From an uncultured Methylomirabilota bacterium (GTDB lineage Bacteria > Methylomirabilota > Methylomirabilia > Methylomirabilales > 2-02-FULL-66-22), in NCBI GenBank assembly GCA_963845565.1, contig CAWJSJ010000002.1, positions 2,112,001 to 2,176,000 of the forward strand: a DNA stretch of 64,000 nucleotides, given 5' to 3'. Shown here one piece after another: positions 52,074 to 62,574 of the stretch; position 1 is the first letter of the stretch; every line of letters begins with the position of its first letter. Both the position numbers and the translations under genes were made by a program. Below the pieces are notes generated by a model that made no database searches, had not been told where the DNA came from, and saw only the letters and a list, made by a program, of their open reading frames with translations.

Positions 52074-53570
52074 TCACACGTTGAGAGGAAAGTGTACCGT
52101 GAAGGTGGTGCCGAGGCCGACCTCGCTCTTGACGTCGATAGTGCCCTTGTGGTCCTCGACGATCCGGTGGGTGATGGCCATGCCCAAGCCCATCCCCTTC
52201 TCCTTGGTGGTGAAAAAGGGGTCGAAGATGCGGGGCAGGCGATCCGCCGGAATGCCCTGGCCGGTGTCCGTAACCATCACGCGAAGCGCTGGTTCCGGCT
52301 GGGGGTGGGGAGGGCCGGAATTGGAAAAGACCATGGCGGGGACCGTGCCCGTCCGGACGGTCAGGTCGCCGCCCGCGGGCATTGCCTGGATGGCATTCGA
52401 CACCAGATTGCTGAAGCACCGATGCAGCCGCTTCCGGTCGGCCATACAGAAGGGCAGTTCGGGATCGTACTCCTGCGCGAGCTTGACCTTCTGAGTGGCC
52501 ATCTGGTTTTCAAACAGCTCCAGAACCTGCGCGAAGACCTCATTGAGATTGACGGGGTCCCGGTGAATCGCGACGGGGCGGGCCAGTTCCATCATGTCCT
52601 CGATGACGGCCTGGACCCGCTCCAGCTCTCGTGGCACCACTCGGTTGAACTTTTCCCGCACGTCGGGGTCGTCGTGATGCAGCGACATGAGCTGCGAAAA
52701 GATCAGGATGGAGGTCAGGGGATTGCGGATGTCGTGAGCGATCCCGGCCGCCATGGTGCCCAGGGCGGCCAGGCGATCGGCGCGCCGCAGACGATCCTCC
52801 AGGTCGCGCACCCGAGAGAGCTGGGCGATCATCTCATTGAACGCCGCCGACAGTTGTCCCAGCTCATCTCGCGAGGTGATCTCGATCCGATGGTCGAACT
52901 CGCCGCGGCCGACGGCGGCCACGCCGCGCATCAGCGCCTGGATCGGCCGGGCCGTACGCCGCGCCAGAAAAATGGAGCCGACGCTTCCGATCAGCAGCCC
53001 GAGAAGCACGAACCCTGCGATCTGCCAGCGCGTCCGAGTGATTTCCTGATGCATGGCCTGGAGGGAGACTCCAAGGCGGATCACCCCCCACGTTTCTTGC
53101 GATCCCTCGATGGTCACGGGAAGTCGCACGTCATATACCGTCTCCCGCTCGGTACCGGGAAGATGGAGCTGGTCCACGGTCGCGTCGCCGGGCTTCACGT
53201 CGTTCCGTCGTTGTAGCAGTTGACCGAGCGGGTAGTCTGGGATGAACTGCGCGGCGACGTTGCCTTCCTTGTCGAGGACCACGGCGTATACGAGATCCGG
53301 TTTCTTCTTGAACTGATCCAGCGTTTGCTCGATGGACACATAGTTGTAAGTCAGAAGATCGCTGGCCACCGAACCCGCCAGCGCTTCGACCATGACGAGC
53401 GCGCGCTTCTCGACTTCCTGGACGATGGCGGTCCGCTGCCGCTGCTCGACCAGAAAAGCCGAACTGCCGATCAGCAACACGATGAGCAGGTTCACCAGCA
53501 GGGCGAGTTTGACCCGGAAGCTCAATCGTTCGGCCCACGCGAGCCAGTGGAACCTCTTGAACGGACTCAT
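52074..53570 (-). CDS. membrane sensor histidine kinase (2 TM, periplasmic sensor, HAMP, HisKA, HATPase)
   Basis: DELGQL..AFN.M (HAMP), AHDIRNPL, NL..NAIQA, DTGQG, FDPFFTTK, GMGLG; ATGA overlap with upstream SBP. Confidence 0.95.
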   Translation of the reverse strand: MSPFKRFHWLAWAERLSFRVKLALLVNLLIVLLIGSSAFLVEQRQRTAIVQEVEKRALVMVEALAGSVASDLLTYNYVSIEQTLDQFKKKPDLVYAVVLDKEGNVAAQFIPDYPLGQLLQRRNDVKPGDATVDQLHLPGTERETVYDVRLPVTIEGSQETWGVIRLGVSLQAMHQEITRTRWQIAGFVLLGLLIGSVGSIFLARRTARPIQALMRGVAAVGRGEFDHRIEITSRDELGQLSAAFNEMIAQLSRVRDLEDRLRRADRLAALGTMAAGIAHDIRNPLTSILIFSQLMSLHHDDPDVREKFNRVVPRELERVQAVIEDMMELARPVAIHRDPVNLNEVFAQVLELFENQMATQKVKLAQEYDPELPFCMADRKRLHRCFSNLVSNAIQAMPAGGDLTVRTGTVPAMVFSNSGPPHPQPEPALRVMVTDTGQGIPADRLPRIFDPFFTTKEKGMGLGMAITHRIVEDHKGTIDVKSEVGLGTTFTVHFPLNV

Positions 53571-55195
53571 TCGCGTCCCGGAGATTTTGCCAGCCAGATC
53601 TTTCGCATGGGGATGTATGGATCGCCCAGGGCGTTCACCTCGATGCTTCGCACATACGGTTGGAAGATCCGCTCGTAACTGTAGTAGTTCAAGGGGATGA
53701 TCGGTGCATCGTCGAGGATCAATCGCTCCGCCTCGCGGTACAAGATCACGCGCTTCGGAAGATTCTGCTGAATGCGGGCTTCGTCGAGTAGTCGGTCCAC
53801 CCGCGGGTTTCGGTAGCGCGTCATGTTGTTCCGACCCTGCGAATGGAAGAGGCGGTAGAGAAAATTCTCCGGCTCAGGGACGTCGCCGACCCAGCCATAT
53901 CGAAAGATGGGCATCTTCCCGTCGTACATGTCGCGGTTGAAGGCCGGAAAATCCGTATTGTAGCGGAATTCGATCTGGACGCCGATTTCGGCCAGTTGCT
54001 GTCGAAGGGTTGCATGTTCCCGTTCGACGATTTCCGAACGCGGGTTGGACCAGACTTGAAAAACGGGCAGGCCTTTCCCGTCCGGGAATCCGGCCTTTAT
54101 TAACAGGGCACGCGCACGCGCGGGATCATAGGCGTACGGTTTGAACTGGGGGTCATGGCCGTATGTTCCTGGTGGAAGGAAGCTGTTACCGGGCTTGTAT
54201 CGTCCCTTGTAAACGTTCTGCACCAAAGCGTCTCGGTCGATCGCGAAATTGAATGCCTGGCGCAATTCCCGGCTGGTAAGCGGCTCCTTGGTGGTGTCGA
54301 AGCCAAAGAACCGGACGCCGAGAATGGGTCGGCTTACGAACTGGTGTTGTTTGCTCTCACGCGCCGTGCCCAATTCGCTTGTTGGAACTGGGGTGTCCTC
54401 GAGGTCTCGTTTGCTGAACCTCGAATACATCTCCTCGATCTTCTGTCCGGGGAAGATACGGTATTGCAGACGATCCAGGAAGGGCCGCCCCGCGAAGTAG
54501 TCAGGGTTTGCCTCCAGCTGGATCATGTCGTCTTTTTTCCATCCGGCGAACTTGAACGGGCCCGTTCCTACGGGACGATTCCCGAACTCGACGCCACTGG
54601 CTTGCACCGCTTCCCGCGGTACCACCTTCGCGTACCCGATGGCCAGGCTGGAGACAAACGGGGCGGAGGCTTCGGCGAGAGAGATCTCGATCGTGTGCGC
54701 GTCCAAGACCCGGAAACCGGAGACGCTCCGGGTTCGGCCCTCGATAAAATCCCGTGCGCCCCGTACCTTCGCAAACACTTCGATGCCGCTGGAACGTACC
54801 TTGGGGTCAAGGATGCGGAGGAACGAGAACACGACGTCATCGGCAACCAATTCCCGGCCGTTATGGAACTTGACCCCCTTCCGCAAGAAAAACGTCCAAA
54901 CCAGATTATCTCGCGAACTCTTCCAGGTTTCGGCCAAAGCCGGCGCGATGGAGAGGGTGTTGTCGTACTGCACCAAGCCGTCGAAGATCTGCTGGACCAC
55001 CGTGACGGCATTCGTATCCGTGACCCCTGCAGGGTCGAGCGTGGAGGGATTGTTGCTCAATGGACGACGATATGTCCCGCCATACTGAGGCGTCGGGCCC
55101 TTACCCTTGGTTTGCGCTAAGACATCAGGGGCGCCGAGCATTCCGGGGGCGAGGGACAGGAAACACAGAACGCAGAGAACGCGATGCAGCAGCAC
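53567..55195 (-). CDS. family 5 (Opp/Dpp-like) peptide-binding solute-binding protein, without adjacent permease or ATPase
   Basis: TLDPA, FDGLV, PALAE.W, LRKGVKFHNG, PVGTGPFKF, RQAFNFAIDR. Confidence 0.93.
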   Translation of the reverse strand: MLLHRVLCVLCFLSLAPGMLGAPDVLAQTKGKGPTPQYGGTYRRPLSNNPSTLDPAGVTDTNAVTVVQQIFDGLVQYDNTLSIAPALAETWKSSRDNLVWTFFLRKGVKFHNGRELVADDVVFSFLRILDPKVRSSGIEVFAKVRGARDFIEGRTRSVSGFRVLDAHTIEISLAEASAPFVSSLAIGYAKVVPREAVQASGVEFGNRPVGTGPFKFAGWKKDDMIQLEANPDYFAGRPFLDRLQYRIFPGQKIEEMYSRFSKRDLEDTPVPTSELGTARESKQHQFVSRPILGVRFFGFDTTKEPLTSRELRQAFNFAIDRDALVQNVYKGRYKPGNSFLPPGTYGHDPQFKPYAYDPARARALLIKAGFPDGKGLPVFQVWSNPRSEIVEREHATLRQQLAEIGVQIEFRYNTDFPAFNRDMYDGKMPIFRYGWVGDVPEPENFLYRLFHSQGRNNMTRYRNPRVDRLLDEARIQQNLPKRVILYREAERLILDDAPIIPLNYYSYERIFQPYVRSIEVNALGDPYIPMRKIWLAKSPGRE

Positions 55196-55263
55196 GTTGG
55201 TGCTCCAGTTGGCGCGACCTTTGTTGTGCGAGGGCGCGTTAGGCGCTTGAGTGTGTACCGTGG

Positions 55264-55292
55264 AGGCTAGCGCTCGCGCTGCCCGAAGTCAA
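55264..55292 (-). promoter_or_regulatory. sigma70-type promoter candidate for SBP-kinase unit
   Basis: TTGACT-N17-TAGCCT on minus strand, just downstream of the terminator. Confidence 0.55.
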
Positions 55293-55320
55293 GGTGCGTG
55301 TGCGGAAAGGGCGGCGGGAC

Positions 55321-55355
55321 AAACAAAAGAGCGCGACCCTGAGGATCGCGCTCTT
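55321..55355 (-). terminator. intrinsic terminator after the peptide genes
   Basis: AAGAGCGCGA-N9-TCGCGCTCTT stem running into TTTTGTTT on minus strand. Confidence 0.8.
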
Positions 55356-55389
55356 ACTCGGTAGTCTTAATGAGTGCTGTCTTTATTCC

Positions 55390-55524
55390 CTACTCGCCGC
55401 CGCCCCCGTCACCCTCGGCCATGCCAACGCGGCTGAACACCTGGGTCGAAGACTGGAGCTCCATCGCCGGAACGATCGCCAGAAGACCGAGCACCACCAG
55501 GGCGAGCACGATGAGCTTCTTCAT
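55390..55524 (-). CDS. 44-aa secreted peptide precursor, third in transcription order
   Basis: GGAGGA RBS, ATG..TAG; MKKLIVLALVVLGLLAIVPAMELQSSTQVFSRVGMAEGDGGGGE. Confidence 0.85.
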   Translation of the reverse strand: MKKLIVLALVVLGLLAIVPAMELQSSTQVFSRVGMAEGDGGGGE

Positions 55525-55602
55525 GTCAGTTCCTCCGCTTTGGCAGCGTAAGTTATTTTATTGAATGATAACGGCTTCGTTTCCACTCGGACGAATGATT
55601 GC

Positions 55603-55737
55603 CTACTCGCCGCCGCCCCCGTCACCCTCGGCCATGCCAACGCGGCTGAACACCTGGGTCGAAGACTGGAGCTCCATCGCCGGAACGATCGCCAGAAGAC
55701 CGAGCACCACCAGGGCGAGCACGATGAGCTTCTTCAT
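55603..55737 (-). CDS. 44-aa secreted peptide precursor, second in transcription order
   Basis: identical to the other copies. Confidence 0.85.
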   Translation of the reverse strand: MKKLIVLALVVLGLLAIVPAMELQSSTQVFSRVGMAEGDGGGGE

Positions 55738-55815
55738 GTCAGTTCCTCCGCTTTGGCAGCGTAAGTTATTTTATTGAATGATAACGGCTTCGTTTCCACT
55801 CGGACGAATGATTGC

Positions 55816-55950
55816 CTACTCGCCGCCGCCCCCGTCACCCTCGGCCATGCCAACGCGGCTGAACACCTGGGTCGAAGACTGGAGCTCCATCGCCGGAACG
55901 ATCGCCAGAAGACCGAGCACCACCAGGGCGAGCACGATGAGCTTCTTCAT
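55816..55950 (-). CDS. 44-aa secreted peptide precursor, first in transcription order
   Basis: identical to the other copies; first gene after the sigma54 promoter. Confidence 0.85.
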   Translation of the reverse strand: MKKLIVLALVVLGLLAIVPAMELQSSTQVFSRVGMAEGDGGGGE

Positions 55951-56070
55951 GTCAGTTCCTCCGGTTGGTTGAGAATCGTTTTTGAGTCTTCGACGAATCT
56001 ACACGCGTGATTCGTTGTTGGTCGCTGGTGTGTTTTCGCTGTGTTTCTCGTCGTACGGTGTCTACAGGAA

Positions 56071-56086
56071 AGCAGGCTTCGTGCCA
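56071..56086 (-). promoter_or_regulatory. sigma54 (-24/-12) promoter of the peptide genes
   Basis: TGGCACGAAGCCTGCT on minus strand (GG-N10-GC). Confidence 0.75.
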
Positions 56087-56264
56087 GGTGTCGGGATTGC
56101 GCGATGTGGGCCGGGAAATGGCCGTGCATGGCGGCGATCTGTGGGTGAAGGTCGCCCCCCAAGAATCCCCGATGCCCAATTCTCTGGGCGAACGACGCAT
56201 CGAAATCGGAGATTATCGCCGCGGAAGGAAGGGAACTGCTTGAATCGGAAGGGGTTTATGTCGA

Positions 56265-56303
56265 TGTCAGATTTTTTGTGCAAGCTGCTACAAAAATCGT
56301 GCA
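56265..56303. promoter_or_regulatory. candidate tandem enhancer (UAS) sites for the sigma54 activator
   Basis: two 18-bp sites TGTCAGATTTTTTGTGCA and TGCTACAAAAATCGTGCA, 21 bp apart. Confidence 0.55.
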
Positions 56304-56325
56304 AGCCAGCATACACGAAGAGTGG

Positions 56326-57735
56326 CTAACTATTCGGAAATAGCTGGGGGCGAGAGTCAATCCGCAAGCGCTGCAGCTTCCACGCGAGCGTATTGCGATG
56401 CAAGCCGAGTACCCGAGCAGCTTCTGTCTGGTTCCACTGCACTTTTTCCAGGATGTTCAGGATATATTGGCGCTCGAAATGGCCCCGTGCCTCCCGCAAA
56501 GACAGTCCTGCCTTCTGGATGTCCTCGATGACATCCCCGCCAAGAATAGAGATTTCCAGGGGCAGCTCCCGCAGTGAGATCGTCTCGCTCTGGGCGAGGG
56601 CCACGGCCCGCTCGATCACGTTTTCCAGTTCGCGCACGTTGCCCGGCCAGTCGTAATGATAGAGAGCGGCCGTCGCCCCGGCGGAGAAACCCTTCACCTT
56701 CCGGACGAACTCCCGATTGTACTTGCCGATGAAGTGCTCCACCAGCAGCGGAATGTCCTCGCGCCGCTGACGCAGCGGCGGGAGAACGATCGGGACCACG
56801 TTCAGCCGGTAATACAGGTCCCCTCGGAACGTACCATCCTCGATCGCCTTCTTCAGGTCCCGGTTGGTCGCGGCGATGACCCGGACATCGATCTTGATGG
56901 TCCGGGTGCCGCCGACCCGCTCCACCTCGCGCTCCTGGAGGGCTCGGAGGATCTTCGCCTGAAGGTCCAGGCGCATGTGGCCGATCTCGTCCAGGAAAAG
57001 ACTCCCCCCGGTCGCGAGCTCGAACTTTCCCACCTTGGTGGCGATGGCCCCGGTGAATGCCCCCTTCTCGTGACCGAAGAGCTCCGACTCCAGGAGTTCC
57101 GCCGGGATGGCGGCGCAGTTGACGGCGACGAAGGGGCGCTGGTTCCGGTTGCTCTGCTGGTGGATGGCGCGGGCCAGCACCTCTTTCCCGGTTCCGCTCT
57201 CGCCGCTCAGCAGCACCGTCGCATTGTTATCGGCGATCCGGGCGACCAGGGTGTAGATCTCTTGCATCCGTTGGTTGCGCCCCACGAGATTCTCGAAGCG
57301 GTGGTCGCGCGCGATCTCGGAGCGCAGGTAGAGGACCTCCTTGACGAGTTCCTGCTTCTCGACCACGCGCTTGATCAGCGAGAGGATGTCGTGGGTGTCG
57401 AAGGGCTTGGTGATGTAGTCGGATGCGCCGAGCTTGATGGCCTCGATGGCGGTCTTCAGGGATTTGACTGCGGTGACGATCACCACCTCGGTCTGTTCGT
57501 TCAGGTCTTTGATCCGGCGCAGGACCTCGATTCCGTCCATGCCCGGCATCCGAATGTCGAGCAGCACGAGATTGACGTCGCGGGTGCTCAGGATGCGGAG
57601 CGCCTCGGGGCCCTGGGCGGCGAAGAGCAGGTCGTAATCCTTGGCGAGGACCGCCTCGAAGGATTCGCGGATGGCGGCGTCATCGTCCACCACCAGGATG
57701 CAGGCCCGGATCGGATGCCCGTCGTGATTCGTCAT
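56326..57735 (-). CDS. sigma54-dependent response regulator (NtrC/AtoC family: REC-AAA+-Fis HTH)
   Basis: VVDDD, LLDIRMP, GESGTGKE, ESELFGHEKGAFTGA, LFLDEIG, WPGNVREL, NQTEAARVLGLHRNTL. Confidence 0.97.
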   Translation of the reverse strand: MTNHDGHPIRACILVVDDDAAIRESFEAVLAKDYDLLFAAQGPEALRILSTRDVNLVLLDIRMPGMDGIEVLRRIKDLNEQTEVVIVTAVKSLKTAIEAIKLGASDYITKPFDTHDILSLIKRVVEKQELVKEVLYLRSEIARDHRFENLVGRNQRMQEIYTLVARIADNNATVLLSGESGTGKEVLARAIHQQSNRNQRPFVAVNCAAIPAELLESELFGHEKGAFTGAIATKVGKFELATGGSLFLDEIGHMRLDLQAKILRALQEREVERVGGTRTIKIDVRVIAATNRDLKKAIEDGTFRGDLYYRLNVVPIVLPPLRQRREDIPLLVEHFIGKYNREFVRKVKGFSAGATAALYHYDWPGNVRELENVIERAVALAQSETISLRELPLEISILGGDVIEDIQKAGLSLREARGHFERQYILNILEKVQWNQTEAARVLGLHRNTLAWKLQRLRIDSRPQLFPNS

Positions 57736-57916
57736 GCCGTATCCCACCCCCGCGAGGTTCCCTTGGCACACATGCGACCCGGCCCGGCGGCCCGAAAGAC
57801 TGTTCGGGCTAGTAGCCCAAACGACGCAAGAAGTCAAGTCCAAAGGCCCGCCACGCCTTGACAGGGCCGGACAACTGTGCGACCGTTCGGTCCCTCATTA
57901 CGGGAGTCGGAATCAG

Positions 57917-59750: not shown

Positions 59751-59849
59751 GCCGTTGTCAAAGAATAAGTTGAGCGGAGACATTCCGAAACGGCATAAGG
59801 AGCCGTAACGAAATAGAAAGAGATGTATAGGTTATTTCGTAACGGCTCC
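59751..59849 (-). mobile_element. MITE-like repeat family A, copy 4 (inverted; TAA on plus strand on both sides)
   Basis: reverse complement of the family A sequence; TAA at 59748-50 and 59850-52. Confidence 0.85.
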
Positions 59850-62251
59850 TAAGCGATGGTCGCCGCCCTGACCTGCTGGAGGGTGGTGCGACCCTGCAGA
59901 ACCTTGATCGCCCCGTCCTGCAGGAGGGTGGTCATTCCCTCGTCCACGGCCACCTTCCGAAGCTGCTCGGCGGTGGCGCGTTTCAGGATCGCGCGCTTGA
60001 TCCGGTCGGTCCCGAGCAGGAGCTCGTGCAGGCCGAGCCGGCCGTGGAGCCCGCTGCCCCGGCAGAGGTCGCAGCCCGTGCCGCGATACAGGACGAGGCC
60101 GTCCGTATAGGTGTACCCGAGCGTCTCCAAGACCGCCAAGCCGCACACCCGGGCCAGCTCGTCGAACTCCTCTTTGGGCGGATGGTACGCCTCGCGGCAT
60201 TTCGCGCAGACCGCCCGGCACAGCCGCTGGGCCAGCACCCCCACCAGGGCGTCGGCGACGCCGAAGCAGTCCAATCCCAGGTCCAGCAGGCGTGAGACGG
60301 TCTCCACGGCGCCGCCCGCGCGCAGGGTGCCGAGGACCAGATGGCCTGCCAGCGCTGCCTCGAGGAGCGCATCCCAGGTGTCCTGGGTCCGCACGGCATC
60401 CACCGCGATCACGTCCGGGTCGGCGCGGAGCGCCGCGCGGACGGCCGCGGCGACGGTCACGCCGCGTGCGGGTTGGACCTGGACTCGGCGCAGACCGGTG
60501 TGGGCCGTCTCGATCGGGTCTTGGATACTCCAGACCTTGCGCTCGACCGCATCGACGGCACCGAGGATGGCGCCGAGCGCAGCGGTGGCGCCGGCGCCCG
60601 GCGGGCTCCCGCAGAGGAACAAGCCAGCGGGTCTGGACGCGATCGCGTGAAGGGTGTGGAGGTTTCGCTCGGCGAGACCGAGTTGGTCCAGCGACAGGGG
60701 CACGCTCGCCGGCAGGAGGTGCATCACCAGGTCCTCGTTCGACCCGGCCGTCGGGAGCGTGGCGACGCGCAGGGCGACCTCTCGGTTGTCGACGACATAC
60801 GTTCCCCGACCCTCCTGGGGCGCGCGCCGCTCGGCGGGATCGAGTCCGGCCACGGCCTTGCAGTGAGCCACCAGGGCCAGCCCCTCTGCCGCCGGCAGCG
60901 TGGTATGCTCGACACACAGACCGTCCACCCGGAAACGAATGACGCACGCCCGCTGGCCGCCCTGCGGCTCGAGGTGCACGTGCGACGCCCCGACCCGGCA
61001 GGCGTCACGCATGATCTGATCGGCGACTCGGGTGCCGGCCGCCTCGCTCGCCTCCCCAGGCTTACTTCCCTGGTCCTCTCCGGTCTGCCCCATGGGCATT
61101 TCCGGCTCCCGCTGGTGGGCCACCTCGTCCGCCGTGTCTTCCGCGGCCGCTTCGCAGACCAGCGGCGCGGTTGCGACGGAGACCGGTGCCTCTGCATCGA
61201 CGGACCGGCTCGGCGTGTCCGCAACGGACGCATCGTCAGGCGTGCGACCGGCAGGGCCGGTCACCGCGTCGAGGAATCGCAGGATATCCGCGCGCAGACC
61301 GACGGCGAACCGGATGGGCCGGCCAGGGAAGGTCCGCTTGATATCCTGGATACGGTTCAGGTGATTTGGGTCGTCGCTCAGGATATGGACGCCGTCCTTG
61401 TCGTGCTTCAGGGGAATCCAGCCGTTGTTCCGCAGGGTTTCGGGATTCACGCTGTCGAGCAGAGTCGGATCGAGGCTCGTCGCGCCGTCGTATTCGATGA
61501 AGGGGCACCGGTAGAACTGGCTGAGGGACTTCCCGATGTCCGCCCTGGGGACCTGGTACTGCTCCAGCAGGACCGTTTCGACGTCAACCTGACCCTGCTG
61601 CGCCTCCCGGATCGCCTGCTCCAAATCGGCTTGGGTGATCCGGTTGTGGGCTACCAGATAGTCGAACTTGGTGGGGATCCGCCGGGAGACCTTGAGTCGG
61701 TTGAAAAACGCGATCCCCAATGTCTGGGCGAGTTCGGAGACCGCGTCCTCGTCCTTCTGGGTGAATCGTCCGCCACTCTTCTTGTTCACGAGCTGTATCA
61801 CGCCCATCAGATACTTGCCATCGGCCACGATCGGGTAGGTCAGGATCTGCTTGGTGCGGAATCCGCTCTTCCGGTCCCAGGAGCTGTCGAACGTGAGCGC
61901 CGGGCTGACGGCGCGAAGCTCGGCGCGGCTGTACGCGTCCGCGATGTTCACGGGGCGGCGGAACTTGGCAGCGAAGCCGGCGATGCTCTGCTCGCTGATG
62001 GGGACGCGGATCTCGCGGATCTTGTTGATATCGAGAAACTTGGAGTAGATCTCGCGCCGTTCGGCGTCCACGACGTACAGGGTCAGCAGCTCCGCGTCGA
62101 GCACCTGGAGGATCTCATCCTTGAGGTCCACCACGATGTGGTCCAAATCCTTGGCAGAATGGATCCGATTGATGATCTCTTTGACGTGTTCCGCGCGGGC
62201 GACTTTCTGCTCGAGTTCTTCCACCCTACTGGAACGGCCTTCGGTCTCCAT
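59849..62251 (-). CDS. GAF domain + GspE/PilB-family ATPase-like protein with degenerate catalytic motifs
   Basis: GAF (SIAGF, FD.SWD.KSGFRTKQIL, QLVNKK...FT..DE); ERRAPQEGR, QDPIE, LRADPDVI, AQRLCR.VC..C, GCDLC. Confidence 0.88.
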   Translation of the reverse strand: METEGRSSRVEELEQKVARAEHVKEIINRIHSAKDLDHIVVDLKDEILQVLDAELLTLYVVDAERREIYSKFLDINKIREIRVPISEQSIAGFAAKFRRPVNIADAYSRAELRAVSPALTFDSSWDRKSGFRTKQILTYPIVADGKYLMGVIQLVNKKSGGRFTQKDEDAVSELAQTLGIAFFNRLKVSRRIPTKFDYLVAHNRITQADLEQAIREAQQGQVDVETVLLEQYQVPRADIGKSLSQFYRCPFIEYDGATSLDPTLLDSVNPETLRNNGWIPLKHDKDGVHILSDDPNHLNRIQDIKRTFPGRPIRFAVGLRADILRFLDAVTGPAGRTPDDASVADTPSRSVDAEAPVSVATAPLVCEAAAEDTADEVAHQREPEMPMGQTGEDQGSKPGEASEAAGTRVADQIMRDACRVGASHVHLEPQGGQRACVIRFRVDGLCVEHTTLPAAEGLALVAHCKAVAGLDPAERRAPQEGRGTYVVDNREVALRVATLPTAGSNEDLVMHLLPASVPLSLDQLGLAERNLHTLHAIASRPAGLFLCGSPPGAGATAALGAILGAVDAVERKVWSIQDPIETAHTGLRRVQVQPARGVTVAAAVRAALRADPDVIAVDAVRTQDTWDALLEAALAGHLVLGTLRAGGAVETVSRLLDLGLDCFGVADALVGVLAQRLCRAVCAKCREAYHPPKEEFDELARVCGLAVLETLGYTYTDGLVLYRGTGCDLCRGSGLHGRLGLHELLLGTDRIKRAILKRATAEQLRKVAVDEGMTTLLQDGAIKVLQGRTTLQQVRAATIA

Positions 62252-62574
62252 GTGTCTCACTCCCCCTGCCTTCCGGCGCAGGTCCATCCGCGTCGCGTGC
62301 CCCTGGTGCCTTTGGGGTGACCCGAGGACGGTGCGCGGTGAGCCGCCGCCCTTCCCGGGTCTGGGACGAGTTGCCGGCAGAAGACTAGCGATCGTTTTTG
62401 GCGAAGGCAAGTTGAAAGATGACCTGCGACATTCGCTTGCCCAGCGGGTCGCCTGGCAGTATGCTCTCGCGCGATCACATGCGAGGGTGCGACCCAGGGG
62501 CACCCCCGCCGGGCACGACCATTATTGCCCCGGCTCCTCCACCTGGGGGAGGTGCCCCCGTTCAGGAGGCCCCC

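Follow-up and report, generated by a model that had tools for sequence, protein, structure and literature searches.

The DNA analysed here (the window) is a stretch of 64,000 nucleotides from an uncultured Methylomirabilota bacterium (assembly GCA_963845565.1, contig CAWJSJ010000002.1, positions 2,112,001 to 2,176,000 of the forward strand), and it holds a module in which the genes for a sigma-54 activator, three copies of a small secreted-type peptide, an orphan periplasmic substrate-binding protein (SBP) and a sensor histidine kinase follow one another on the minus strand. An earlier note, made from the sequence alone, had proposed a peptide autoinducer circuit at this place, and judged by comparative sequence analysis the module indeed looks like a self-regulating peptide signalling loop of a kind so far undescribed in double-membraned bacteria. 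The reading favoured here, to which we give a probability of about 45%, is a dedicated circuit in which the exported peptide would be sensed through the SBP and the kinase and would feed back on its own sigma-54 promoter. The module is of interest because it is class-wide and compact, a secreted-type peptide gene, a peptide-type SBP, a kinase and a sigma-54 activator being held together in one unit. Its elements, all on the minus strand in the order activator, 18-bp sites, sigma-54 promoter, peptide genes, hairpin, SBP and kinase, are the following (positions are those of the window).

56326-57843, minus strand: sigma-54 enhancer-binding response regulator, an open reading frame (ORF) of 505 aa that opens with TTG at 57843, the likely start being the ATG at 57735
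56286-56303, minus strand: distal activator site 1, TGCAC-N8-TAGCA, an imperfect palindrome, TGCACGATTTTTGTAGCA (matrix score 18.0, genome rank 2)
56265-56282, minus strand: distal activator site 2, an imperfect palindrome, TGCACAAAAAATCTGACA, 21 bp from site 1 (matrix score 18.2, genome rank 1)
56173-56190, minus strand: proximal activator site 3, CGCCC-N8-GGGCA (matrix score 12.8, among the 28 genome-wide matches of at least 12)
56071-56086, minus strand: sigma-54 -24/-12 promoter, TGGCACGAAGCCTGCT, TGGCAC-N5-CTGCT, read from the sequence, 136 nt before the first peptide ATG
55385-55963, no strand assigned: tandem array with a period of 213 bp and 2.7 copies (TRF, 99% matches, score 1151), holding the three peptide genes and their ribosome-binding sites
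55816-55950, minus strand: peptide gene copy 1, 44 aa, from the ORF list
55603-55737, minus strand: peptide gene copy 2, same as copy 1, from the ORF list
55390-55524, minus strand: peptide gene copy 3, same as copy 1, from the ORF list
55327-55355, minus strand: terminator-like hairpin 3' of the array, 13 pairs, 8 of them G-C, followed by a T-rich tail
55264-55292, minus strand: weak sigma-70 promoter candidate TTGACT-17-TAGCCT, named by the earlier note
53567-55195, minus strand: orphan family-5 (DppA/OppA-like) periplasmic SBP, 542 aa, SBP_bac_5 at 1.5e-88, with a Sec-type leader and no lipobox
52074-53570, minus strand: sensor histidine kinase, 498 aa, with a transmembrane (TM) helix, a periplasmic sCache_3_2 domain, a second TM helix, HAMP, HisKA and HATPase_c

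These parts and their order are established. The Pfam domains of the activator, Response_reg (5.1e-30), Sigma54_activat (3.7e-74), AAA_lid_14 and the Fis-type helix-turn-helix HTH_8 (6.6e-12), agree with its translation, in which the GAFTGA loop is present, on the REC-AAA+ protein with intact GAFTGA that the earlier note had described; it reaches no NCBIfam equivalog at cut-off (AtoC 488.8 of 714, ZraR 425.9 of 760, with NtrC, GlrR and LuxO also under). Most of the remaining feature list of that note was likewise borne out: the paired 18-bp sites were confirmed by sequence and joined by the third, proximal site that it had not listed, the -24/-12 promoter was found and is kept in relatives, ORFs and TRF agree on three identical secreted-type peptide genes, the intrinsic terminator corresponds to the hairpin above, the SBP is of family 5, and the HAMP kinase is coupled to it through an overlap of 4 nt (ATGA) between the kinase start and the SBP stop. 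The sigma-70-type promoter that it had placed before the SBP gene was not confirmed, as the -10 hexamer matches at 3 of 6 positions and the promoter scan reports nothing on the minus strand at its thresholds. The kinase sensor, which the note had not named, is an sCache_3_2 domain (32.4 bits, cut-off 28.4), and the top named families of the kinase are AtoS and ZraS, both under their cut-offs (ZraS 207.6 of 479).

In regard to the peptide gene, the three 44-aa ORFs are letter-for-letter identical, a GGAGG ribosome-binding site precedes each ATG, and these three are the only copies in the genome (5.36 Mb, 6 contigs, 98.7% complete, 66% G+C). The peptides of the family begin with MKK or MTK, continue with 15-18 hydrophobic residues and P-x-x-E, and close with a polar, acidic, Gly-rich tail of about 22-26 residues ending in G-x-A-[DE]-G-G-G; M1, L15, P19, E22, G34 and A36 are invariant across 28 aligned peptides. 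Among 12 orthologues of the genus (66 non-independent pairs) the ratio of nonsynonymous to synonymous differences (pN/pS) is 0.245 (pS 0.43, pN 0.105), alike in the hydrophobic half and in the tail half, and this comparison indicates a real gene under purifying selection. The product matches no Pfam or NCBIfam family, its Atlas cluster of 173 members is labelled 'hypothetical protein', and the family is small, a search of 1.84 billion representatives having returned just 72 matches at E ≤ 0.001.

Seven of these 72 representatives were read individually. The long match P0046 was read as an unrelated repeat protein, and P0062, P0066 and P0072 look like frameshifted gene calls running into the following sequence, which for P0062 and P0072 is the binding-protein gene. 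P0049 (88 aa) carries one hydrophobic leader and two tail-like modules, each ending in ...AEGGGGG, by internal duplication and not as a gene array. Frameshifted copies, altered near or within the glycine-codon run so that ORFs of 60-72 aa with unrelated tails result, occur in L004 (genome G009) and L072/L098 (G240), as two of the three copies in L004 and two of the four in L072, where genuine copy decay and assembly errors in the G-rich run are indistinguishable.

The module is far from private to this genome. With the single peptide sequence as query (E ≤ 1e-9), the gene turned up in 12 of the 20 further genomes that represent its genus and in a single genome from a different family, and a profile of 15 peptide sequences (E ≤ 0.01) matched at least 104 of the 251 genomes of the class. 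By coded family, the matches amount to 12 of 20 in f1, 3 of 6 in f5, 1 of 1 in f2, 81 of 159 in f9, 4 of 21 in f10 and 1 of 1 in both f11 and f12, with none in f4 (0 of 15), f7 (0 of 20), f3, f6, f8 and f13; the unpublished genomes G075, G217, G028 and G050 are included in these tallies and support no individual claim made here. The figure of 104 is a lower bound, because reading of the loci showed diverged peptides that the profile had missed, as in f10. Among the near loci, the peptide gene lies between the activator and SBP homologues in 11 of 14, the rest being at a contig edge or requiring ORF reading. In the 40 whole modules assembled for comparison (the window's and 39 from six coded families), one to five peptide genes stand between activator and SBP in every case, as one copy in 30 modules, two in seven, and three (the window), four and five in one module each. 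About 110 genomes have an SBP orthologue. A further 20 loci were chosen for having such an orthologue (47-64% identity, E ≤ 1e-150) and no peptide profile match; one of them has 303 bases only, and 18 of the 19 with at least 480 nt upstream of the SBP gene carry one to five diverged peptide genes. The scan of homologous loci for small secreted ORFs, which the earlier note had put forward as a check, thus found them in all 40 modules and in 18 of these 19 loci, and the refutation named there, homologous loci devoid of such ORFs, did not come about.

An orthologous kinase gene follows the SBP gene in the modules examined, and Pfam, run on 41 proteins of 11 modules, returned the same parts throughout and, apart from regulators, kinases and binding proteins, nothing but genes unrelated to the module. 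In families where the peptide is absent, paralogues of the SBP (about 40% identity) have no activator or kinase neighbour in 10 of 10 loci, and for this reason they are not counter-examples. Judging from these comparisons, the module is conserved across the class and its association with the peptide is obligate. A full-text literature search in a limited set of papers found no description of the module, in line with the earlier note, which had not recognised the architecture as a described system, and no paper joining Methylomirabilota with sigma-54.

The regulatory wiring is also conserved. The activator sites sit in the AT-rich spacer between the activator gene and the peptide array, and they were scored over the whole genome with a matrix made from 16 sites of relatives, from which the own genome and its near twin were left out; no further site cluster was found in 5.36 Mb. 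Because the two distal sites rank 1 and 2 genome-wide, the peptide array looks like the dedicated target of the activator. As far as site sequences can tell, it looks like the evident, perhaps the only, direct target, and we infer that the precursor gene is under the control of the system's own regulator. The site layout, two palindromes 21 bp apart and a third about 105 bp downstream, is kept in relatives, and the same two-plus-one arrangement recurs in family f10, as TGCAC-N8-GTGCA. The -24/-12 element is present in 14 of 15 near loci, and 37 of 40 modules have GG-N10-GC at a distance of 74-136 nt from the start codon of the first peptide gene, on its upstream side, the three misses being one near-match, one array with the first copy mis-set and one truncated locus. 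The genome has one copy of rpoN.

The SBP has peptide binders as its best solved relatives (8upi at 8.3e-72, DppA 1dpp at 1.8e-59, then HbpA, MppA and OppA), the nickel binder NikA being far weaker at about 1e-29, and it reaches no NCBIfam equivalog (DppA 204 of 1005). Its Asp438 aligns with Asp408 of DppA (1dpp) and is invariant in 11 orthologues, and the position of DppA Arg355 is taken by Asn384. In DppA, Asp408 presumably anchors the free N-terminus of the ligand and Arg355 the carboxylate of the dipeptide; if these roles are right, the SBP would bind peptides by the N-terminus and would not be limited to dipeptides. An OppC-type permease lies within 8 kb at 23 of the 29 family-5 SBP loci of the genome, and the nearest to the module's SBP is 43.5 kb away. 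No importer permease was found by Pfam in the 11 modules, and no ABC (ATP-binding cassette) permease or ATPase is among the genes that flank the module in the window (UvrC, a homoserine kinase of the GHMP type, ProC and YggT), as the earlier note had stated. Since it lacks a permease, is coupled to the kinase through ATGA and has paralogues of about 40% identity that stand apart from any activator or kinase, the SBP seems more likely to serve in sensing than in transport, and by analogy an orphan, kinase-coupled SBP would fit the kind of co-sensor represented by LuxP, TorT and CBP. Co-folding of SBP residues 28-541 (11-row alignment) with peptide residues 15-44 (28-row alignment) gave 0.00 in both runs, which speaks neither for nor against binding.

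Five other family-5 SBP loci of the genome have no OppC-type permease within 8 kb and could encode sensor-type binding proteins as well; they include C1:1025926-1029588, C4:37246-38340 and C2:256977-257999 (genome G000). Four of them lie at least 44 kb from an OppC-type permease, and the fifth, C2:36789, lies 8.1 kb from one.

That the peptide and the SBP belong together is suggested by their co-variation, examined by Mantel permutation tests on 9-11 related, non-independent genomes at a time. In the window's own genus the SBP falls into three classes that are 0.36-0.49 apart, with the window's SBP forming a class of its own, and the activators differ by 0.03-0.14 in a way that does not follow the SBP classes; the window and L015, for example, are 0.03 apart in the activator and 0.49 in the SBP. 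Across nine genomes of this genus, the distance between peptide tails correlates with SBP distance (r 0.40, p 0.026), compared with 0.10 for the activator, and SBP and activator distances correlate at -0.08. The pattern is stronger in genus g62, where nine genomes give r 0.74 between peptide and SBP (p 0.002), unchanged at 0.74 with activator distance removed, against 0.05 for the kinase sensor, 0.09 for the kinase core and 0.12 for the activator. Likewise, 11 genomes of family f10 give a partial r of 0.64 with the SBP (p 0.0035) and of -0.08 with the kinase sensor. The pair L099/L094 illustrates the same tendency, with activators 0.02, kinase cores 0.03 and SBPs 0.16 apart, and with different peptides. 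That the peptide diverges in step with the SBP in two lineages, and independently of the activator, lends indirect support to a pairing of peptide and SBP, and we treat this co-variation as a lead and not as proof.

Furthermore, the peptide tail of g62 has a structure in which a variable core is framed by constant parts: a constant APVIESGT is followed by five variable residues (PTSVP, KTHMP, QNRLP, PSHLS, LTSGP, QSRVP, PNQVH and others) and by a constant VFQAVGNA[CS]DGGGGGW. When the first copies from 12 genomes are compared, this core has a pN/pS of 1.12, as against 0.11 before and 0.25 after it, at similar pS (0.36-0.40). The arrays of this genus reach four and five copies, and within one genome two paralogue lineages that differ in their hydrophobic parts have tails that are identical or almost so. 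In L091, the last ~110 nt up to the stop codon are 100% identical between paralogues and the flanking sequence is unrelated on both sides; the paralogue tails of L093 and L102 show few differences, mostly synonymous. This pattern points to gene conversion limited to the part that encodes the tail.

Taken as a mechanism, the favoured circuit would run as follows. The kinase, by its adjacency the presumed phosphodonor, would phosphorylate the activator, which would then bind the three TGCAC-N8-GTGCA-type sites and drive the sigma-54 promoter of the small-gene array, apparently the only product of that promoter. The Sec-type hydrophobic leader would place the tail in the periplasm, either free after signal-peptidase cleavage or tethered, and the tail could there act as the cognate ligand of the adjacent orphan DppA/OppA-like SBP. 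By docking on the coupled kinase at its periplasmic sCache domain, the SBP would set kinase activity, so that the peptide output would feed back on its own promoter, with a sign that the earlier proposal took to be positive. In that proposal, the anatomy and the regulatory wiring stand and have been strengthened by the comparison, and the pairing of peptide and SBP has gained indirect support from co-variation and from Asp438. Within the circuit reading, about half of the weight goes to signalling among cells, in the manner of quorum sensing, and half to a loop that stays inside the periplasm of the producing cell. The more ambitious version is that of a Methylomirabilota pheromone, a Sec-exported ribosomal peptide read by an orphan DppA-like SBP that would gate an sCache kinase and a sigma-54 activator, in strain-specific peptide/SBP pairs represented by the three SBP classes of the window's genus and the hypervariable cores of g62; we consider it rather unlikely.

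A number of observations weigh against the circuit, and especially against its intercellular form. With activator distance removed, peptide distance over all 30 modules has a partial r of 0.57 with the kinase sensor (p 0.0005) as against 0.18 with the SBP (p 0.045), and the partial r between a 10-column core of the peptide and the SBP is -0.00. The Mantel tests draw on few and related genomes, and because the peptide and SBP genes are physically adjacent, a recombining peptide-SBP cassette could give the same signal without any binding. The window itself is discordant: its peptide lies at only 0.05-0.15 from the peptide of one SBP class, and its SBP at 0.36-0.42 from the SBPs of that class. 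The pN/pS of 1.12 in the g62 core is compatible with diversifying selection and equally with neutrality or lost constraint, and most members of f9, the largest family, have a strongly conserved core, SGTSGSTQ, unlike the agr and com pheromones, which diverge rapidly. In the binding protein, the arginine of DppA is not kept, and one of the 19 profile-missed loci, L085 (G004:C174:1-788), has at its contig start a transposase-like fragment (bases 3-431, motif DNYGTHKH...) abutting the SBP gene. For a signal peptide that is cut off, a hydrophobic segment of 15-18 residues is long, and it could instead anchor the peptide in the membrane. Candidate cleavage points lie after VPA and after LQS, and the possible signal-peptidase sites VPA|ME of the window's peptide and IES|GT of the other order do not correspond in position. 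The host phylum is diderm, with an outer membrane, and a peptide of ~2 kDa cannot cross general porins; neither the genes beside the window's module nor the scanned modules include an exporter or processing protein of the AgrB/ComAB type, and the locus encodes no outer-membrane route. Cell-to-cell signalling would for these reasons need parts that are not seen.

One of the two main alternatives to the circuit is that the peptide is purely an output. The SBP and kinase would then respond to a different ligand in the periplasm, for example oligopeptides from the environment or peptides of the cell wall, and the activator would switch on, without feedback on the sensor, a small peptide, exported or membrane-bound, whose target lies elsewhere. 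We hold this to be possible, if on the unlikely side. Family-5 SBPs are generally known to bind many short peptides without a dedicated partner, and the best solved relatives of this one are generic peptide binders; an array that is the sole evident target of the activator suits an effector as well as a signal, and the conserved core in most of f9 and the mismatch between the window's peptide and SBP class both speak for it. What such an output would leave unexplained is the adjacency of peptide and SBP genes in 40 of 40 modules, the divergence of the peptide along with the SBP rather than the activator in two lineages, and the homogenisation of within-genome paralogues in the tail only; moreover, no second target gene is conserved nearby. 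The correlation with the kinase sensor over the 30 modules, the best that the peptide shows there, would be at home in the other main alternative, in which the peptide is an accessory feedback regulator of the kinase in the manner of MgrB-PhoQ, ZraP-ZraS or CpxP-CpxA, and the SBP carries a separate signal. The peptide would then stay in the inner membrane or periplasm and damp or tune the kinase through its sCache domain or TM helices, a role to which a hydrophobic segment ending in the invariant P-x-x-E is suited as an anchor. AtoS/ZraS and AtoC/ZraR are the highest-scoring named families for the kinase and the activator, and ZraPSR offers a precedent of a sigma-54 system whose periplasmic accessory protein is under its own control. 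In g62 and f10, however, the peptide tracks the SBP and not the kinase sensor (r 0.05 and partial r -0.08), it has no sequence relation to MgrB, CpxP or ZraP by Pfam or NCBIfam match, and arrays of up to five copies with a hypervariable core are unfamiliar in those proteins, which makes an accessory role doubtful.

Toxin-immunity and bacteriocin loci are generally known to have gene arrays too, as well as hypervariable cores and neighbouring genes that fall into deep allelic classes, and the peptide could be an exported weapon or protectant, either a Sec-dependent microcin/bacteriocin-like product or a metal-binding periplasmic peptide, induced by itself or by stress through the SBP and kinase. 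The acidic, Gly-rich tail is neither amphipathic nor cationic, and no immunity, exporter or modification gene is conserved nearby. For metal binding there are the His, Met and Cys residues of g62 variants and the nickel and metallophore binders within family 5, but most lineages have no His or Cys at all and the SBP is far nearer to peptide binders than to NikA; altogether a function of this sort seems quite improbable. Multi-copy arrays of genes in which a variable core follows a conserved, leader-like part also resemble the precursors of ribosomally synthesised and post-translationally modified peptides (RiPPs), possibly of a methanobactin-like kind, whose product would be recognised by the family-5 SBP and whose modifying enzymes would be encoded elsewhere; methanobactin operons do include a family-5 binding protein, MbnE. 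The leader is Sec-type and not of the kind that RiPP enzymes recognise, most lineages lack Cys, and no modifying enzyme (e.g. MbnB/C), protease or exporter was found by Pfam in 11 modules or beside the window's module. A RiPP origin is accordingly the least credible of the explanations considered.

The self-regulated circuit can be compared with several known systems. In LuxP-LuxQ, TorT-TorS and CBP-ChiS, as in the module, the SBP gene adjoins the kinase gene and ligand-dependent control of the kinase from the periplasm would be shared; their ligands are AI-2 (autoinducer 2), trimethylamine N-oxide and chitin oligosaccharides, whereas the candidate ligand of the module is a ribosomal peptide encoded in the locus. 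CBP, itself an SBP_bac_5 protein, is the sole family-5 co-sensor in the table of SBP-dependent kinases given in PMC8050422. It also serves an ABC transporter, in contrast to the module's SBP, which has none nearby. Unlike in all three, the output of the module is a sigma-54 activator whose evident target would be the gene of the candidate ligand itself.

With agr and ComCDE the module shares a peptide precursor gene that stands with a kinase and a regulator and is apparently controlled by that regulator, a candidate receptor (here the SBP) in deep allelic classes and, in one lineage, a hypervariable peptide core. It differs from them in that the leader is Sec-type and no protein is dedicated to processing or export, that an sCache/HAMP kinase and a distinct SBP stand in place of the polytopic AgrC or ComD, that the regulator is a sigma-54 AAA+ activator and not of the LytTR type, and that the peptide core is conserved in most lineages; agr and ComCDE belong to monoderms, whereas the module's host has an outer membrane. 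ZraPSR of enterobacteria resembles the module in its sigma-54 activator of the same family, its kinase with a periplasmic sensor and its small exported product as the local sigma-54 target. However, ZraP is a folded protein of ~140 residues without likeness to the 44-aa peptide, the ZraR and ZraS scores stay under their cut-offs, and Zra has no binding protein, nor are gene arrays or a variable core known to us from it. MgrB and SafA, which act on PhoQ, are close to the module's peptide in format (44-47 aa, one N-terminal hydrophobic segment, a short periplasmic tail and induction by a two-component system), but they have no sequence relation to it, and the module always has an SBP, has tandem arrays and, in two lineages, has a peptide that co-varies with the SBP and not with the kinase sensor. 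Finally, DppA-Tap chemotaxis and the Opp-dependent pheromone uptake of monoderms also employ a family-5 peptide binder in peptide sensing, yet these binders belong to working ABC importers and signal to a chemoreceptor or to the cell interior, whereas the module has no importer and the SBP has a histidine kinase as its partner. By analogy, the module is best described as a hybrid of SBP-co-sensed kinases, peptide-autoinducer systems and self-inducing sigma-54 accessory systems, and as a member of none of them.

Signalling loops based on ribosomal peptides are textbook knowledge in Gram-positives and poorly documented in outer-membrane bacteria. Provided that the peptide is indeed the ligand, the module would represent a new receptor architecture for peptide sensing, composed of a binding protein and a kinase, and if the peptide proved a shared signal, the module would be a quorum-sensing system native to diderms with a receptor architecture unlike those of agr, com and RRNPP. 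Methylomirabilota are largely uncultured and matter in soils and sediments and in methane and nitrogen cycling, and the same finding would provide a first handle on cell-cell or envelope signalling in this phylum. Should the loop stay within one cell, it would still amount to an unusual self-priming switch in which an exported mini-protein is combined with an orphan binding protein. The proposal can be put to a direct test, because the module is small enough to be rebuilt in E. coli.

In regard to expression, 14 RNA-library runs hold part of the stretch. In four of them (X1, X2, X7 and X9), from four studies, contigs cover the repeat unit together with the 213-bp tandem joint, in two runs as 243-nt contigs with one differing letter each. 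Presence in an RNA library is no proof of transcription, and the tandem unit in these contigs is taken as a weak hint of expression. No contig of the four runs lies over 55971-56400, which holds the 5' leader, the promoter, the sites and the end of the activator gene; gaps of this kind, arising from contigs or filters, are uninformative on the transcript start, which is predicted to lie near 56060. The near-identical 213-bp units (55751-55963) come from RNA libraries of river, sediment and freshwater metagenomes, and since they come from four studies, the organism or close kin, and with it the array, is widespread in such samples.

Several further features were noted in the related loci. A conserved hairpin, CCCTCATGG(T/G)GAGGG, forms part of the peptide mRNA's 5' leader in loci L054-L067 and L103-L105, some 30-60 nt ahead of the first start codon; it occurs in many loci of the other order, has no counterpart in the window's genus and could be an element of RNA stability or translation. 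The sensor kinase in families of that order has an extra PAS domain, which is lacking in the window's genus. Likewise, a hybrid kinase gene (~390-530 aa, HisKA-HATPase_c with a REC domain before or after the core) follows the module in L053, L054, L061, L062, L063, L065 and L067 and not in the window's genus. At L085, the transposase-like fragment sits where the peptide genes, promoter and activator lie elsewhere, as a result of either disruption by an insertion sequence or an assembly break. In the window itself, upstream of the module and just past uvrC, the minus strand at 59849-62503 encodes a protein of 884 aa that combines GAF and MshEN domains with a T2SSE secretion/pilus ATPase, a sensory N-terminus being unusual on an ATPase of type II/IV secretion.

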